Shown: positions 12,153 through 58,640, counted from the stretch's first letter. The stretch is DNA of 64,000 nt from Candidatus Campbellbacteria bacterium GW2011_OD1_34_28 (GCA_001029775.1 CP011215.1:682303-746302), one strand, 5' to 3'. The notes: generated by a model not told the origin, from the letters alone. Program-made: numbers and translations.

Positions 12153-12695
12153 CTATTCAACAAGAATTGCCAGTCTTCGCCAATATTTTTTAAAAGTGCC
12201 AATATCTACAAAAACGTCTTTCCCCTCTTCTGCATTTTGATAATCGGTATCGTTGTAATAAAAACCTTTTAGCATGCCAAAGTTTGTTTTGAAACCTGTC
12301 AAAACAACCATATGAAATCTGTCGGTTTCAGAAAATCTTTTTACAACAGACACCAAAACAGGTTTGTCTTTTTTCAAACTATTTTTAATTTCTCTCACCC
12401 CATCTTCCGACAATCTTTTTTGTTCTTTTTTATTTTCCGATCGAAACTCTGTTCTTTTTAAAACGACATCAAAATCTTTTGCAACATCTACAAGACCTTG
12501 ATGTATCCAGCCGTTTTTTCCATAAGCATTTTTTCCAACAGCGTATTTTATAAATTCATCAGGTGTGAGATCTTTTTGGTTAAAAAAATTTAAGACAGAT
12601 TTCAAACACAAAACACCGCAGGCACGCGGTTTCCAATATTCATCTTTTACATCTGTGTATTGAGAATAATACGGAACATCTAATTTCTTTTGCAT
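12153..12695 (-). CDS. papain-like cysteine peptidase (C39-like/BtrH-like) candidate
   Basis: YSQYTD...RACGVLCL (Cys), FHMVVLTGF (His) and YNDTD (Asp), in the order expected for a papain-like triad. Confidence 0.35.
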   Translation of the reverse strand: MQKKLDVPYYSQYTDVKDEYWKPRACGVLCLKSVLNFFNQKDLTPDEFIKYAVGKNAYGKNGWIHQGLVDVAKDFDVVLKRTEFRSENKKEQKRLSEDGVREIKNSLKKDKPVLVSVVKRFSETDRFHMVVLTGFKTNFGMLKGFYYNDTDYQNAEEGKDVFVDIGTFKKYWRRLAILVE

Positions 12696-13406: not shown

Positions 13407-14036
13407 TTATCTAATCCCCGTGTCGCAGAATAAATCAATTCCTGTTAAATCTTTATTATCGATAGAAATATCTTTTGTATTGCAGGAAGGAAAAGGTCTC
13501 CCACCAATTGGTTGTAAAGCATATTCGCCCACAGGTAGACTTAACTCGTAAAAACCATTTTCGTCTGATTCTGCTGTTGCGAAAGGTGAACTTTTTGGGC
13601 TTCCTGCTTCAATAACTTGAATTGTAGTTTTGTAAGGTTTATCAGCACAATTTGGATCAGGAATCTCTTTTTCCACAGGGCAAATTGGTCCTAATAAAAC
13701 TCTTCCCTGTATTTTAAATTTTGTCTCCAACTCATTATCGACATCTTCATTATGTCCGTTCAATAAATCGTTGATATCTTCCACATCGTTCAAAATGTCC
13801 TTAACGTCAGATTTTTCATCTATAAATTCACACCCACATCCAGTTTCGTCACTAAAAGGTTTTCTTCCCTCTTCACATATATATTTTATTACTGAACATT
13901 CTTCTACGCTGTTTTTTACATAGATTTTGTCTTCATCTATTTGATTTTTTTGAGAATAATAAAAACCACCACCAAACACCAAAGCAATTATCCCAACAGC
14001 TATTAACACTCCCAATAAACCAAATCCTTTTTTCAT
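13407..14036 (-). CDS. secreted/membrane-anchored hypothetical protein with a C-terminal beta-sandwich-like domain
   Basis: N-terminal TM/signal sequence; acidic linker; GFYELSLPVGEYALQP transthyretin/CarboxypepD_reg-like pattern. Confidence 0.35.
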   Translation of the reverse strand: MKKGFGLLGVLIAVGIIALVFGGGFYYSQKNQIDEDKIYVKNSVEECSVIKYICEEGRKPFSDETGCGCEFIDEKSDVKDILNDVEDINDLLNGHNEDVDNELETKFKIQGRVLLGPICPVEKEIPDPNCADKPYKTTIQVIEAGSPKSSPFATAESDENGFYELSLPVGEYALQPIGGRPFPSCNTKDISIDNKDLTGIDLFCDTGIR

Positions 14037-14047
14037 ATTTTTTAACT

Positions 14048-15241
14048 TTATTTATATGATGAATAAATTATCCTCCAAAATGCTCCCAAACCTAACAACA
14101 CCAGAACAAACATCGCAATCCACCCAAACAAAGGAATAAGACCAATGATTGAAAGCAAGATTGTCCCACCGACAACGATTTTCCAATCAACAGAATAATC
14201 TTTTTTCTTCATCACCAAACGAGCAAGCCATGTTCCAAAAATTATTCCAGCAATTGACGCAGAAAGTGTCAAAGAAATTAGATAAGCCATAAGAACAAGT
14301 GCTCCTAACCAAAGACCAAACAAAGTAATCATCAAAAGAATAAAAGCAATCGGAGTCAAAACTAACACAACAAAACCAATTCCCAGACTCTTCCAAAAAT
14401 TGTTAAAGCTTTCTTTTGTTACTGTCTCTGTAAATTTCTTGAACATATACACAAGCACAAAAGCAACAATCATCAGTCCTATCATTTTGACAAACAGAGC
14501 AATTGAAAGAAAAGCAAACACTGCACCAACAAAAACTCCTTTGTTTATTTCTTTTTCGCGACCAAATTTACTTTCACTGATAATTGTTTGCCCTTTAACA
14601 ACAGCTCCTTCCATCAATTGAATCGGTTTTTTAGAATAATATTCCAAATTTCCATTTATTACGGCATTGCTTCCCAAAACCAACTCATCTGCTTGCCCTA
14701 CTTTCACGTTACCTTTTATTTCGCTGTTGATTGTAATCATTCCGCCACCAAGATAAACATTTCCTGCAACAGGACTTTGAATATCAACTGTTCCTCCGCC
14801 AACAATCAAATCTCCGCCGACGCTCGCTTCTTTGGAAATCATCAGATTTCCTCCGGCAATAAATAAGTCATCCACAATATCTCCACCAACCACAACACTA
14901 CCACCAGCCGTGTGAACACTTCCGTTTACATTTCCATTGATCATTATTGTTCCTCCTGCCGAATAAACCGATTGTCCGACATTTCCATTTATATTAATAA
15001 CATTTCCTGCTGAGTGAATACCTTTTTCTATATTTGCATCAATTGTTACTATATTTCCTGCGATATAAAGATTTTTGATTTGTTCTTCTGCTCCGACATT
15101 TACACTACCATTATTTTTGGCTCCTATGCGTAAATCTGCCGCACTGATTGTTCCTGCAACGCTTAAAAAAGCGAAAGCAAAAACAAAAGCCAAAGCCAAA
15201 GCCAAAGATAAAATTTTTTGTAATTTCATAATAAATAGCAA
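14048..15241 (-). CDS. bactofilin-like (polymer-forming beta-helix repeat) domain fused to a C-terminal multi-TM region
   Basis: Signal peptide, then repeated G.V.G/N.V beta-helix repeats, then 4-5 TM helices. Confidence 0.45.
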   Translation of the reverse strand: MLFIMKLQKILSLALALAFVFAFAFLSVAGTISAADLRIGAKNNGSVNVGAEEQIKNLYIAGNIVTIDANIEKGIHSAGNVININGNVGQSVYSAGGTIMINGNVNGSVHTAGGSVVVGGDIVDDLFIAGGNLMISKEASVGGDLIVGGGTVDIQSPVAGNVYLGGGMITINSEIKGNVKVGQADELVLGSNAVINGNLEYYSKKPIQLMEGAVVKGQTIISESKFGREKEINKGVFVGAVFAFLSIALFVKMIGLMIVAFVLVYMFKKFTETVTKESFNNFWKSLGIGFVVLVLTPIAFILLMITLFGLWLGALVLMAYLISLTLSASIAGIIFGTWLARLVMKKKDYSVDWKIVVGGTILLSIIGLIPLFGWIAMFVLVLLGLGAFWRIIYSSYK

Positions 15242-15338: not shown

Positions 15339-15905
15339 CTAGATGAGACTCATACCCTGATAACGATGAAGACCAACAAGAGTATTGTCTGATCCGTCAT
15401 TAATACTTTTATAGATTTTTTCCTCTCCAACAAAACCAGAGAATAATTTAGCCCTTTCAACATCGTTAAAATATGCTAGATCAGAGTAATTTTTATCATA
15501 ATAATAATTATTACCTCTTCCACCCATAAAATGACGGGCTTCAATCATCTCCGTCAAAGCCAATTTCAAAAAAGAAATAACCTCTTTTGGGTACCATCCA
15601 CAGTAACTCATAACCCAAACGGGATTAGTGCCGAACCAAATCGTCGTTTTTCCTTCTGAACGCCCATTAGCGTGCGACGACCATTCATCCACAAAAGTAA
15701 ATTTTCCTGTTCGATGACGAAGGCACTTATAACCAGGCATCAGACTGTGGCTAGGTTTAACCTTTTCGGTCGGCCAACCGACAGTTTGCATGGCTTCCCA
15801 ATAAAAATCCTGAATATCTTGGACGGTTATTTGGGATATATTTCTTTCCGATTCAAAACCAACAACCCTTACGCCTTCGGCGATTCTTCTTAATTCATCC
15901 GACAT
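15339..15905 (-). CDS. hypothetical protein
   Basis: 188-aa ORF with its own terminator; no recognised motif. Confidence 0.35.
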   Translation of the reverse strand: MSDELRRIAEGVRVVGFESERNISQITVQDIQDFYWEAMQTVGWPTEKVKPSHSLMPGYKCLRHRTGKFTFVDEWSSHANGRSEGKTTIWFGTNPVWVMSYCGWYPKEVISFLKLALTEMIEARHFMGGRGNNYYYDKNYSDLAYFNDVERAKLFSGFVGEEKIYKSINDGSDNTLVGLHRYQGMSLI

Positions 15906-16039: not shown

Positions 16040-18373
16040 CTATCTAACTTCCCAACCTTTTGATTGCATCTGTGTAGTTATTCCATTCATAATTTTATTC
16101 ACTTCGTCATCCGTCAAAGTTTTTTCATTCGATTGAAATACCAAATTAAAAGCATAAGAAGTCTTGTCTTTACCCTCTGGACAATAAACATCAAAAAGTT
16201 TTGTTCTAACCAACAAGTCTCCACCGTTTTCTTTAATCAAACCTGCAACACTTTCTTGAGTTTCTGTATTTGGCACCCAAACAGCAATATCGCGAAGCAT
16301 AAATGGAAAGGGTGAAATATGTTTATATTTTGATTCAACATTGTTTGGATTTTTTAGAACATCTTCGTATGATTCTGGTTGAGGAAGTTTTTCAATTAGT
16401 GCATCAAAATTAATTTCTAAAATATTTTCATTTTCTTTCACTTTTAAATCAACGCCCAAATCGGCATTTATTTTCTGGATTGCTTCGCTTACGCTCGCAA
16501 AGACATTTTTTTTATTTTTTCCCGCAACACCAAAACAAAGCATTCCCTTCTCTTCTTCGGTAGACGAAAAAACTTTTCCAAATTCAAAAATCTTTATTTC
16601 ATCCAATCCCAACAACGGTGCATTTTTTAAATTAAGATCCAATTTTTCTTTCATTCCATCAGAAAGATTTGTTCTCAAATACGCTTTATCGCTCGCCAAA
16701 GGCTTTTCTATTTTTACATTTCCTTCACTAGTAAATGTATAATTGTAAATTTCTTCAAATCCTAAATCTATCAAAATTTGTTTTACTTTGTTTGCATAAT
16801 AAAAACCTTTATGAACTTTTGGTTCTCTTATTTTTTCCAATGGCAAAGTTTTTATATTTTCCAAACCATAAATTCTACCTATTTCCTCAATCAGATCTTG
16901 TTTAATCCTTAGATCCATTCTTTGATAAGGAACTGTGACAACATATCTTTTCTCTTCGCTCTCTACCATTCTTCTGTAACCAACAATATTTTTAAATTGT
17001 TTAAATTCAGAAATATTTCCCATCTCAACGCCGTCGTTATTGTAACGAGATGCGTGAATTATTTTTCCATCTCCTAAATACAAACCAACATGGTCAACAC
17101 CTTCTTCTATCTTTGTCCCAGACAAAAATTCTACCGATTCAAAATAGATCTTTCCTTCTCCTGTATTAGAGAAAATCAAATCCCCTGCTTTCAAATCACT
17201 TTCTGAAATTTCCTTGCCATACACAAACTGATCAACTGCCATTCTTGGAATCGCTATTCCCCCCTGTGCAAACAAATATGCCGTAAAAGAGGAACAATCA
17301 AAACTGTGAGGAGCGTCATAAACAACACTTGCTCCTAATTTATAAGACTTGCCAATCAAATCATTTACCAATTCCAAAACTTTTTTTGCAGAATCAATTT
17401 GTGCAAACTCGAATTTAAATTTATTTAAAATTTCTTCAACATCTTTGTCAGAAAGATTTAATCCCAAAATTTTATTAGCGTCTTTTGTAGTGAATCCAAC
17501 TTTATAAGGATTTGGTTTTCTAGGATATACATCTACCTTTCCAACTACTTTTCCGCCAGAAATTTCCGAAATTAATTCCACCAACTCTTTCATCGCCACT
17601 CCCGCCAACTCGGGACTGATTTCGTTCTCAAAACGCTTTGAGGAATCAGTTAATATGGAAAAGCCTCTCGCAGTCTTTCTAACCGTTATAGGGGCAAAAT
17701 TGGCCGATTCCAGCACCAAATTGACGGTATTTTGATCTACTTCTGCCTTTTTTCCACCTTTTACACCTGCAATCGCCAAAGGCTCCTTAGAATCTGCAAT
17801 AACAAGATTTTCAGAAGTTAATTTTACTTCTCTATTATCCAATGTAATTATTTGTTCTCCGTCCTTTGCGTTTCTTATATTTATTTCGTTACCGTCCAAT
17901 TTGTCTTTATCAAAAGCATGCAACGGCTGTCCGATGTTAAACATCACATAGTTTGTCGCATCCACAATATTGTTGATAGATTTTTGTCCCAGAGATTCCA
18001 AATTTTGTTTCAACCAATCTGGAGAAGACCCCACCTTCACGCCTTCCATTACAACAGCAACATAGCGGCGACATTTTTTTTCATCCTCTATTGTCACTTT
18101 AAAATCACCCAAAGTCTCAACTTCCAAGTCGGTGTGTTGAATATCTTTTATTTCTAAACCAGTCAAAACAGAGACTTCTTTTGCAATACCCAGATGACAC
18201 AAACAATCGTGGGCTCTGTTTGGAAGAACATCAATATCTAAAATTGTATCACTGCCTTTTTCTTCTACTCCTTCTACCTCGAAGGAATGTGAATTTAACA
18301 AAACCGCCAAATCGTTTGGATTAGGCAATTCTTTATTAAAATATTTTTTTAGCCATCTATAAGATATAATCAT
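16040..18373 (-). CDS. pheT: phenylalanyl-tRNA synthetase beta subunit with an inserted NlpC/P60-like domain
   Basis: N-terminus MIISYRWLKKY; B3/B4 domain (NYVMFNIGQPLHAFD); B5; C-terminal FDVY...AFNLVFQ. Inserted residues ~335-455: DCSSF (Cys), GDLIF, HVGLYLGDGKIIHAS (His) = NlpC/P60 signature. Confidence 0.85.
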   Translation of the reverse strand: MIISYRWLKKYFNKELPNPNDLAVLLNSHSFEVEGVEEKGSDTILDIDVLPNRAHDCLCHLGIAKEVSVLTGLEIKDIQHTDLEVETLGDFKVTIEDEKKCRRYVAVVMEGVKVGSSPDWLKQNLESLGQKSINNIVDATNYVMFNIGQPLHAFDKDKLDGNEINIRNAKDGEQIITLDNREVKLTSENLVIADSKEPLAIAGVKGGKKAEVDQNTVNLVLESANFAPITVRKTARGFSILTDSSKRFENEISPELAGVAMKELVELISEISGGKVVGKVDVYPRKPNPYKVGFTTKDANKILGLNLSDKDVEEILNKFKFEFAQIDSAKKVLELVNDLIGKSYKLGASVVYDAPHSFDCSSFTAYLFAQGGIAIPRMAVDQFVYGKEISESDLKAGDLIFSNTGEGKIYFESVEFLSGTKIEEGVDHVGLYLGDGKIIHASRYNNDGVEMGNISEFKQFKNIVGYRRMVESEEKRYVVTVPYQRMDLRIKQDLIEEIGRIYGLENIKTLPLEKIREPKVHKGFYYANKVKQILIDLGFEEIYNYTFTSEGNVKIEKPLASDKAYLRTNLSDGMKEKLDLNLKNAPLLGLDEIKIFEFGKVFSSTEEEKGMLCFGVAGKNKKNVFASVSEAIQKINADLGVDLKVKENENILEINFDALIEKLPQPESYEDVLKNPNNVESKYKHISPFPFMLRDIAVWVPNTETQESVAGLIKENGGDLLVRTKLFDVYCPEGKDKTSYAFNLVFQSNEKTLTDDEVNKIMNGITTQMQSKGWEVR

Positions 18374-18434: not shown

Positions 18435-19169
18435 TCAGAATTGCTGGTTGAATTTGAGATCCCCCGCATACATCAACCTTATATCATCTATCCCATATTT
18501 CAACATCACGATTCTGTCTATTCCTAAACCAAAAGCAAAACCCTGCCATTCACGAGAATCGATTCCAACATTGTTCAAAACTTTTGGATGCACCATACCC
18601 GCTCCCAATATTTCAATCCAACCATTATGTGAACAAGCAGGACAACCTTTTCCATTACACTTGAAACAAATCATATCAATCTCTACTCCCGGTTCTACGA
18701 AAGGAAAGTAACCTGGTCGCAAACGAATGGTTACATCTTCACCAAAAAGTTTTTTCAAAAATGCTTCTAAAACAGTTTTTAAATGTGCAACAGAAATATC
18801 CTTTCCAATCATTAGTCCCTCCATCTGATTAAACTGTGCATCGTGAGTTGCGTCAGTTGCCTCGTTTCTAAAAACTCTCCCTGGTACGATAATCGCAATC
18901 GGTGGTTTATTTTCTTTCATATATCTAATTTGAACATCCGATGTTTGTGTTCGGAGAAGTTTTTTCAAATTTTTTGGCTCCAACCAAAAAGTATCCTGCA
19001 TATCTCTAGCGGGATGATCTTGTGGAACATTCAATGCATCAAAGTTGTAATATTCATCTTCCATCTCAGGACCCTGAGCCACCTCAAAGCCAAGCTCTAT
19101 AAAAATAGAACTTATTTCCCTAATCAATCTAGTCACTGGATGAATGTGTTTTTCTGAATCTTTTATCAT
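18435..19169 (-). CDS. pheS: phenylalanyl-tRNA synthetase alpha subunit (short form)
   Basis: Class II motifs ([41 protein letters not shown]). Confidence 0.85.
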
Positions 19170-40202: not shown

Positions 40203-40330
40203 GTTGTTGGTTCGGTTTTCTAATAATTAGGTGGCCAGATACACAAAAATCCCGCCACCAGAAGGAGACCTTTCGATCATCCCTACCTAAGTTTCCCTAG
40301 GTAACCGAACCAACGACCCTGATGACGGGG
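40203..40330. repeat. structured inverted-repeat region upstream of the serine recombinase (candidate recombination site)
   Basis: ttgttggttcggtt ... aaccgaaccaacg inverted pair flanking ggtggcc...gccacc, plus a third ttggttcgg copy. Confidence 0.35.
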
Positions 40331-40554
40331 TTTTTACGTTGGTTCGGATTTGCAACCATATCCTTTGGAAAACCAAAGGGGTTAGGTCGACTGATATTCA
40401 GTTGTAAATTAATAATAACATTTTCGACTTTATTATTCTAGATTGATTGTATCGCTGATACATGATTTTGCTAAGACTCTATATACGACCATGCTACGTA
40501 TCTCTAGTTCTGCATAGTCTATGCACCACCAACTGGTCTGTCATCAATATATGT

Positions 40555-56806: not shown

Positions 56807-57065
56807 AAAATGAACATTACTTCAATCCAGATAATAACTTAATTGACTAAACGTGTCAATAACAAAAAACTACCTCTCGGTAGTTTTATTTTTTTTGCAT
56901 TTAAACGACAATATAATCTTTCTTTTGTTTCGTTTCATTCCCCAGTAACGCATATCTGGGGTTAGCGAGTATAGATTTAGGGATACAATACTATTGTCCC
57001 TATCACTTAAGAAGTGATAATCAACCGATTAAGTCTGTTTTCTCGTAAGAAAACAAACAGTTCAT

Positions 57066-58640
<1,575 letters not shown>

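Follow-up and report, generated by a model that had tools for sequence, protein, structure and literature searches.

This study concerns pheT, the gene for the beta subunit of phenylalanyl-tRNA synthetase (PheRS), in a 64,000-nucleotide stretch of DNA from Candidatus Campbellbacteria bacterium GW2011_OD1_34_28 (GCA_001029775.1 CP011215.1:682303-746302; the whole stretch is hereafter called the window), and in particular an NlpC/P60 cysteine peptidase domain nested within its product, PheT. Described bacterial PheRS beta subunits, such as those of T. thermophilus (1PYS) and E. coli (3PCO), have the domains B1, B3/4 with its editing residues, B5, the catalytic-like module (CLM) and FDX-ACB. The same domains are found in the usual order in the window, but there B5 is split by a domain of 148 amino acids (aa), B2 is absent and the partner alpha subunit, PheS, lacks its N-terminal extension. 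Aminoacyl-tRNA synthetases (aaRSs) with accessory domains (editing, EMAPII/Trbp111, WHEP and GST-like domains) share with this PheT the principle of an extra module placed in a surface loop. Known modules of this type bind RNA or protein or edit aminoacyl-tRNA, and in this the insert of the window differs from them. No description of an NlpC/P60 domain in PheRS or in any other aaRS was found in the searchable literature; the C40 domain has already been picked up by automatic annotation.

Of the described NlpC/P60 enzymes, the P60-type DL-endopeptidases (Acd24020, 7CFL; E. coli MepS/Spr; B. subtilis CwlO and LytE) have in common with the insert the Pfam family, the papain-like fold, the Cys-His-His triad, a conserved Tyr, and the Asp-Cys-Ser and 'PR..Q' motifs. 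Secretion or a lipid anchor brings these enzymes to the wall sacculus, on which they act, whereas the domain of the window carries no signal and is nested in a subunit of a presumably cytoplasmic aaRS. Its family also has 'YK[LR]GAS' where the P60-type enzymes have 'Y.WGG', four more residues before the catalytic Cys and an extra insertion before the His strand. Members of the family that reside in the cytoplasm are also known, and in B. subtilis and C. trachomatis they serve to recycle peptides from peptidoglycan (PMC2954226; PMC9928106). YkfC of Bacillus and of C. trachomatis, the latter from an obligate intracellular bacterium (PMC9928106), and DPP VI cleave the gamma-D-Glu-diamino acid bonds of free peptidoglycan peptides (PMC2954226; PMC9928106). 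They belong to the same family as the window domain and share four gamma-D-Glu-binding residues with it. The specificity of YkfC depends on a Tyr of its SH3b domain and on Asp256, whereas the window domain is without SH3b and its family has Met or Ile at position 256. A functional analogy to YkfC may be proposed.

An NlpC/P60 domain nested in B5 of PheT

The pheT gene is a single open reading frame (ORF) in which no frameshift or internal stop was detected (Table 1). Its product exceeds the cut-off of the bacterial equivalog TIGR00472 pheT_bact of NCBIfam (468.2 bits against 402.65) and matches the beta chains of PheRS structures in the PDB with an E-value of 1e-67. Pfam detected B3_4 (aa 100-273), B5 in two stretches, NLPC_P60, CLM and FDX-ACB, and the overall order of domains is B1, B3/4, the N-terminal half of B5, NlpC/P60, the C-terminal half of B5, CLM and FDX-ACB. 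The AlphaFold2 (AF2) model of the full-length protein has a predicted local distance difference test score (pLDDT) of 91.2 and resembles bacterial PheRS beta structures, with the insert separately matching NlpC/P60 structures.

The insert lies in the beta-hairpin of B5 and both halves of B5 are retained. The preliminary description of this DNA had placed it between B5 and the C-terminal core, which Pfam and the alignments show to be incorrect, as aa 324-471 split the hairpin itself. Against PheT of S. haemolyticus, aa 41-323 align with residues 160-444 and aa 477 onward align from residue 451, while the C-terminal B5 stretch (aa 470-503) covers positions 32-66 of the 67 in the Pfam B5 model. 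In the nearest Parcubacteria PheTs without an insert (627-657 aa, 46-51% identity), its place is taken by a turn of 4-5 residues, flanked by '...FEF' before and '...RYVVTVP' after; with the boundaries set in this manner, the possibility that the segment is an ordinary PheT linker was excluded. AF2 was confident over both B5 halves and the insert, in the model of the module as well as in that of the full-length protein, and in the latter across both junctions. The base composition of the insert does not depart from that of the rest of the gene. An intein or other self-splicing or mobile insert was considered and rejected, as the junctions (FEF/AQID and SEEK/RYVV) have no splicing residues. In the insert region Pfam reports only NLPC_P60, with no homology to Hint, and standalone descendants of the module, described below, keep both B5 halves.

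The segment to which the preliminary description had drawn attention, positions 17010-17370, does correspond to aa 335-455, and the three motifs on which it relied, DCSSF, GDLIF and HVGLYLGDGKIIHAS, were all located in the one continuous 777-aa ORF. The profile search confirmed a genuine NlpC/P60 domain (MEROPS C40), with PF00877 matching aa 341-458 (E-value 4e-18, 65.7 bits against a gathering score of 23), and several NCBIfam NlpC/P60 models also match this region. The predicted catalytic residues Cys360 (motif FDCSS), His428 (GVDHVG) and His440 (KIIHAS) correspond to C238, H291 and H303 of B. cereus YkfC (PMC2954226). Over 83 family modules, Cys360 and His428 are each kept in 82 and His440 in 78, with the complete triad found in 77. 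At the third position, five modules have another residue (four Tyr or Phe, one Gln). It should also be noted that in the PheT of one locus, L011, the whole triad has been replaced (C to S, H to R, H to Y) and the domain has been retained.

The ratio of nonsynonymous to synonymous substitution rates (dN/dS), computed against an 87%-identical relative (L006), was 0.17 for the insert, 0.11 for the rest of PheT and 0.018 for the C-terminal half of B5; the insert is under purifying selection. The AF2 model of the module (pLDDT 93.3, predicted template modelling score 0.88) shows the papain-like alpha+beta fold of NlpC/P60, and its best Foldseek match in the PDB was the catalytic domain of the C. 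difficile autolysin Acd24020 (7cfl_A; E-value 1.7e-12, target-normalised template modelling score 0.90, root mean square deviation 2.0 A, 34% identity), followed by MepS, CwlO, LytE, YkfC and other DL-endopeptidases. A cell-wall hydrolase or transglutaminase-like fold had been suggested in the preliminary description. The hydrolase part of this suggestion agrees with the folds found; a transglutaminase-type function is not indicated, the closest folds and the retained site residues being those of gamma-D-Glu DL-endopeptidases. The insert therefore looks functional and is presumably catalytically active.

The substrate site was compared with the gamma-D-Glu site of B. cereus YkfC, which Xu et al. 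(2010; PMC2954226) assigned to Tyr226, Trp228, Asp237, Ser239 and, at position 257, a residue of small size, Tyr226 being believed essential for catalysis (PMC2954226). According to our own mapping of the sequences, four of the five have a counterpart, with Y344, D359, S361 and A379 matching Tyr226, Asp237, Ser239 and the small residue respectively. Y344 is invariant in the module alignment and lies 16 residues before the Cys instead of 12, the embedded domain having four extra residues at this point. Position 359 is Asp in 63 of the 83 modules, with Ser in standalone proteins having FSCSS, and S361 is kept in 82. The equivalent of Asp256 is Met378 (Ile, Met or Val in relatives) and Pfam reported no SH3b domain in PheT; because these two features are absent, the domain is not a member of the YkfC subfamily. 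Judged by its sequence, it is a bona fide P60-type member of NlpC/P60 with a largely intact gamma-D-Glu pocket.

The synthetase that houses this domain is a minimised one, with PheS lacking the N-terminal extension and PheT lacking the B2 OB-fold domain. PheS matches tRNA-synt_2d of Pfam (E-value 3e-100) and positions 70-322 of the 324 in TIGR00468; its start at position 70 means that the usual N-terminal extension is missing. In PheT there was no Pfam match to B2 (tRNA_bind, PF01588), and residue 41 already aligns with about residues 155-160 of the PheTs in the PDB. Insert-less sister PheTs (~630-650 aa) are likewise without B2, and some insert-bearing PheTs of 901-903 aa (P0184, P0185) possess it. 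The insert therefore does not track the loss of B2, and the idea that it compensates for this loss was rejected. The absence of B2 is a trait of the lineage and gives no ground for excluding the protein from the bacterial PheRS beta subunits. With regard to editing, alignment to 3pco_B showed that the residues of the E. coli PheT editing site (His265, Glu334, Thr354 and Asn254) are all kept, within QPLHAFD (His), LESA (Glu), LTDSS (Thr) and ATNY (Asn); the position of E. coli Ala356 is occupied by Ser. Because the B3/4 editing residues are conserved, the peptidase is no stand-in for a dead editing site, and this explanation was rejected for the embedded form.

Distribution, standalone modules and the C39-like partner gene

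At least 24 contigs in 30 index blocks, drawn from different assemblies and including NCBI GCA_003489565.1, encode the identical 777-aa protein, and the annotation of a Candidatus Campbellbacteria genome includes a protein with 98% identity to it. GTDB was scanned with one genome per species; 84 loci were found, of which the best 80 were kept and classified by ORF and blastp. All of the loci kept belong to Patescibacteria (those named being Campbell-, Yonath-, Lloyd-, Zambryski-, Vogel- and Nomurabacteria), which bears out the earlier proposal of a lineage-specific insertion. Complete PheT genes of 770-901 aa with the identical domain order, including the split B5, account for 62 of the 80 loci, with five further NlpC-bearing PheT genes truncated by the contig end and 13 loci having standalone module genes (~200-247 aa). 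The in-frame architecture is also present in 36 independently sampled metagenome loci. A search with the module in a library of 1.84 billion representative proteins gave 166 clusters (50% identity) at E<=1e-30; their representatives are mostly 770-830 aa long and carry the module at about residues 300-520, and approximately 98 of the best 120 PheT homologues carry PF00877. An assembly chimera, or two genes joined by a frameshift, was rejected given the wide recurrence of the identical protein and of the architecture, with the B5 halves in register, the two-gene alternative raised in the preliminary description being further excluded by the single ORF.

A few proteins deserve separate mention. 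One PheT of 704 aa (P0188) has only the C-terminal half of the NlpC/P60 domain, from 'EGVDHVG', the Cys-bearing half being gone; this reflects either partial deletion or faulty assembly. Three others, P0027 (1183 aa), P0136 (666 aa) and P0152 (398 aa), are unrelated proteins with 3-9 tandem NlpC/P60 domains, and their high scores against the module profile are due to domain repetition only.

The module also exists outside PheT. Homologues of the 217-aa stretch comprising the N-terminal half of B5, NlpC and the C-terminal half of B5 are mostly free-standing proteins of 196-237 aa, in which both B5 halves are present, partly eroded. At 15 related loci, a gene of 200-247 aa with this B5 half, NlpC/P60 and B5 half organization is the sole remnant of PheT, and in 14 of them it adjoins a gene of ~380 aa which combines the catalytic core of PheS with FDX-ACB (here called the PheS-core+FDX-ACB gene). 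The two are co-directional and abut or overlap in nine loci and are divergent in five. The module of L004 adjoins an AAA gene and no PheRS gene. Ordinary loci have the order RF-1, S2, EF-Ts, glycosyltransferase, pheS, pheT, gyrB and dnaE. The standalone loci share these flanks, with the PheS-core+FDX-ACB gene at the position of pheS and the module at that of pheT. In a crude neighbour-joining tree the standalone modules nest among the PheT-embedded ones. The peptidase thus has a selectable function that is independent of the rest of PheT, without being universally indispensable.

The PheS-core+FDX-ACB genes (one is listed in Table 1; others are found at L064, L065, L068, L070, L074-L076, L078-L081, L083, L084 and L089-L091) have the architecture of mitochondrial monomeric PheRS (TIGR00469 pheS_mito) and of the 'PheS-related mystery ligase SrmL' (NF051887). 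They differ from both in being bacterial, from Paceibacteria, and in scoring below the two cut-offs (236 bits against 258 and 231 bits against 300, respectively). The family comprises more than 120 clusters above 70% identity in Paceibacteria, annotated as hypothetical or 'PheS family'. An in-situ fusion of the clade's pheS with the FDX-ACB of its pheT was not supported, as the proteins form a tight clade of their own at a BLOSUM-based distance of ~0.72 from both parts. This distance and the tight clade therefore suggest that a foreign gene or a very old paralogue replaced pheS-pheT at the locus. From the architecture and the position at the pheS locus, PheRS activity would be expected, and these genes may represent a bacterial monomeric PheRS which has replaced the alpha2-beta2 enzyme. 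No description of a bacterial monomeric PheRS in these lineages was found in the searchable full-text literature. It should be noted that at L091 a standalone tRNA_bind gene (PF01588, B2/Trbp111-like) lies directly upstream of the PheS-core+FDX-ACB gene; it may be another surviving fragment of PheT or a trans-acting tRNA-binding cofactor.

A second peptidase gene is coupled to the module. In the window, a gene for a protein of the Peptidase_C39_2 family is situated 3.3 kb downstream of pheT with three genes in between (see Table 1), unlike most relatives, in which it follows pheT directly. Its product has the papain-type Gln/Cys/His residues, Q12, C26 and H128 being invariant in 24 orthologues. 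Proteins of this partner family are ~170-210 aa in length and signal-less. The nearest PDB entry by profile is 3erv, a 'putative C39-like peptidase' (E-value 9e-06), and the solved relatives closest to the partner are uncharacterised 'C39-like peptidases'. A C39_2 gene was found within 5 kb of 44 of the 68 loci with NlpC-bearing PheT and of 7 of the 15 standalone loci. It is downstream on the same strand in 51 of 53 cases, at a distance of 150 nucleotides (nt) or less in 40. The reverse test, an independent metagenome scan started from C39_2, gave 61 loci, of which 36 have NlpC-bearing PheT upstream (mostly immediately, six at 0.5-1 kb) and two have a standalone module upstream; at eight the 3' end of pheT is cut by the contig edge, and about six show no pheT in over 1 kb of sequence upstream.

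In two proteins of 392-397 aa (P0046 and P0076) the module and C39_2 are fused. P0046 is encoded after a gene for a CAP-domain protein and two genes from a Glycos_transf_4 gene (a Pfam family including MraY), which is itself preceded by a Peptidase_S11 gene, with no PheRS gene present in the 7-kb locus. Conversely, C39_2 is absent from all three insert-less PheT loci with the same synteny. At L151, the PheT (638 aa) has no insert and the C39_2 gene that follows it has decayed to a frameshifted remnant, with the fragments 'GAYGEHGWRHE' and 'WRRMAVF' lying in different frames, which suggests that the partner was lost where the insert is absent. No C39_2 gene was detected near the triad-dead L011 within the ~4 kb available downstream. 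The moonlighting role raised in the preliminary description is plausible, and is made more specific by this coupling and by the survival of the module as a separate gene without PheT. A role as an anti-phage defence system was also considered and rejected, as neither the module, the C39_2 protein nor the DUF5680 protein encoded between them in the window had a match in PADLOC. In PHROGs the only matches were to generic NlpC/P60 domains of phage tail lysins.

Possible role of the embedded peptidase

The explanation that we favour, tentatively and with somewhat less than even confidence, is that PheRS carries an autonomous cytoplasmic hydrolase of the gamma-D-glutamyl type, which acts together with the C39-like partner and probably serves in the salvage of wall peptides. 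An ancient in-frame insertion in the ancestor of a large Paceibacteria (Parcubacteria) clade would have given the tip of the B5 beta-hairpin a complete cysteine amidase of P60 type and papain fold, the two halves of B5 still pairing and serving as its socket. PheRS would retain its normal aminoacylation and B3/4 editing equipment and would act mainly as carrier and expression vehicle. The inserted domain, with its gamma-D-Glu-type S1 pocket, would be catalytically competent and would work with the C39-like cysteine peptidase, which has no signal peptide and whose gene usually follows directly. Its likeliest task would be the hydrolysis of peptidoglycan-derived gamma-D-glutamyl peptides in salvage or recycling, comparable to that of YkfC in Bacillus and Chlamydia. 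No signal peptide was predicted in PheT or in the standalone proteins. Patescibacteria are generally credited with a scavenging lifestyle, into which such salvage would fit.

A number of observations weigh against this explanation. The equivalent of Trp228, a strictly conserved residue of gamma-D-Glu-specific enzymes which contributes to the S1 and S2 sites of YkfC, is Leu346 in the window and Arg in the family consensus 'YKRGAS', and a family-specific insertion of 19-38 residues precedes the His strand. Asp256 and SH3b, which limit YkfC to free murein peptides, are both missing, and an unrestricted cytoplasmic DL-endopeptidase could attack UDP-MurNAc-peptide precursors. It is homology and a few residues only that point to the substrate, and the missing signal peptide is the sole ground for placing the domain in the cytoplasm. 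Nothing accounts for the placement of the peptidase in PheRS, and the presence of the standalone gene beside a PheS-core+FDX-ACB gene in 14 of 15 loci could reflect a role linked to PheRS and not inertia. At all three further PheS-core+FDX-ACB loci there is no adjacent module; the module is therefore kept only in a subset of these lineages and is dispensable in some.

Several other explanations need to be weighed against wall-peptide salvage. A task in translation itself is unlikely, if by no means negligible: the thiol would attack an aminoacyl ester or adenylate, in trans-editing or deacylation of mischarged or D-aminoacyl-tRNAPhe or in LRAT-like transfer of Phe to an acceptor, with the C39-like protein carrying out a second step. 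The NlpC/P60 superfamily does include acyltransferases (LRAT/HRASLS), and there is a weak Pfam match to LRAT for P0001. The domain is moreover covalently part of an aaRS in at least 62 species, still adjoins the PheS-core+FDX-ACB gene in 14 of 15 loci where PheT, B3/4 included, has been lost, and keeps the B5 halves in the standalone proteins. With the editing residues intact in the embedded form, however, no replacement is needed there, and the retained S1 residues are those that bind gamma-D-Glu. We know of no NlpC/P60 enzyme acting on aminoacyl-tRNA, many PheS-core+FDX-ACB loci have no module, and modules also occur away from PheRS genes, as in the fusion encoded near cell-wall genes and in L004. 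A related and distinctly unlikely proposal is that NlpC/P60 and the C39-like protein form a two-peptidase machine docked on PheRS through the B5 halves, either coupling translation to wall or amino-acid salvage or acting on aminoacyl- or peptidyl-tRNAPhe (e.g., by thiol-based trans-editing or Phe transfer). Such docking would have outlasted the swap to a mitochondrial-type monomeric PheRS in part of the Paceibacteria.

It is also improbable that the domain has a chiefly structural or regulatory role and is in effect a pseudo-enzyme, which would serve as a platform for tRNA, the C39-like protein or a wall ligand, or which would offset the missing B2 and PheS extension. L011 with its lost triad, four other modules with Tyr or Phe and one with Gln at the third triad position, and the minimised PheRS are all consistent with this, and non-catalytic NlpC/P60 proteins such as RipD (4jxb; NF033743) exist. 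Yet the Cys and the His are near-constant across deep divergence along with the S1-site residues, B2 and the insert vary independently (P0184 and P0185 have both), and the module survives where PheT is gone. A neutral or selfish hitch-hiker, tolerated without function in a permissive loop of an essential gene, is very improbable. The B5 hairpin tip is indeed a short surface loop in insert-less relatives, some lineages have lost all or part of the insert (L151, P0188), and the base composition of the insert is like that of the rest of the gene; against this stand the low dN/dS, the near-invariance of the catalytic and substrate-site residues, the retention of an intact independent gene after PheT was lost, and the co-variation with the partner gene, to which the module is even fused in two proteins. 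The source being a metagenome-assembled genome, an artefact of assembly or of a sequencing frameshift might be suspected, but it is scarcely credible given the recurrence of the protein and its architecture described above and the confident AF2 prediction across both junctions.

Wider context and further features

The arrangement places an NlpC/P60 enzyme in an unprecedented host context, of the kind occupied by aaRS accessory domains. A conserved and presumably active cysteine peptidase of the peptidoglycan type, housed in a subunit of an essential synthetase, would represent a new type of domain acquisition by an aaRS, and the arrangement extends over at least 62 species-level lineages of tiny, uncultured, minimal-genome bacteria dependent on scavenging. 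Some lineages have lost PheT and kept the peptidase with stubs of B5, others have lost the insert, and one insert-less lineage has a decayed partner gene; this natural dissection provides informative variants which make the function approachable by experiment. Two further subjects emerge from the analysis, an uncharacterised module of two peptidases (NlpC/P60 with C39_2) in Patescibacteria and a widespread bacterial PheS-core+FDX-ACB enzyme. As these PheTs are named 'C40 family peptidase', 'phenylalanine--tRNA ligase beta subunit-related protein' or 'hypothetical protein' at NCBI, the first of these names could cause annotation pipelines to miss pheT in such genomes. The coordinates of the features discussed are given in Table 1, together with those of other features of the window and of related loci.

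Table 1. Features of the window (positions counted from its first nucleotide) and of related loci (locus name given before the position)
Feature	Position	Strand	Remarks
pheT, PheRS beta subunit	16040..18373	-	777 aa, single uninterrupted ORF
pheS, PheRS alpha subunit	18435..19169	-	244 aa, catalytic core only; upstream of pheT
B5, N-terminal half	17405..17512	-	about aa 288-323; strand, two helices, strand; alignments and AF2 secondary structure
Inserted NlpC/P60 (C40) cysteine peptidase domain	16961..17404	-	aa 324-471, 148 aa; alignment to insert-less PheTs
B5, C-terminal half	16859..16960	-	aa 472-505; strand and helix, 'RYVVTVPYQRMDLRIKQDLIEEIGRIYG'; Pfam and PDB alignment
Motif DCSSF	17285-17299		aa 359-363
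Motif GDLIF	17171-17185		aa 397-401
Motif HVGLYLGDGKIIHAS	17048-17092		aa 428-442
Cys360 codon, catalytic	17294..17296	-	predicted; motif FDCSS; equivalent to Cys238 of B. cereus YkfC
His428 codon, catalytic	17090..17092	-	predicted; motif GVDHVG; family alignment
His440 codon, third triad residue	17054..17056	-	predicted; motif KIIHAS; family alignment
Peptidase_C39_2 gene	12153..12695	-	180 aa, no signal peptide; PF13529, E-value 4.9e-12, 47.1 bits against 24
DUF5680 protein gene	15339..15905	-	between pheT and C39_2
Membrane protein gene	14048..15241	-	397 aa, repetitive Gly/Asn-rich segments; DUF8173 in public record; between pheT and C39_2
Gene with weak pilin-like N-terminal methylation motif	13407..14036	-	209 aa; between pheT and C39_2
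LOOT RNA (RF03000)	40265..40388	-	Rfam, 78.4 bits against gathering score of 46.4
16S rRNA gene	57065..58640	-	bacterial, complete
PheS-core+FDX-ACB gene	L001:6862-8001	+	~380 aa; mitochondrial monomeric PheRS architecture
PheT with replaced triad	L011:27-2366
Insert-less PheT	L151:2026-3942		638 aa
C39_2 remnant	L151:4001-4351		frameshifted
Module-C39_2 fusion P0046	L153:3001-4194
tRNA_bind gene	L091:3551-3979	+	142 aa, standalone
PemK-family toxin gene	L086:5499-5885	+

The last gene listed comes from a related Parcubacteria genome, where it separates pheS from a pheT without the insert.

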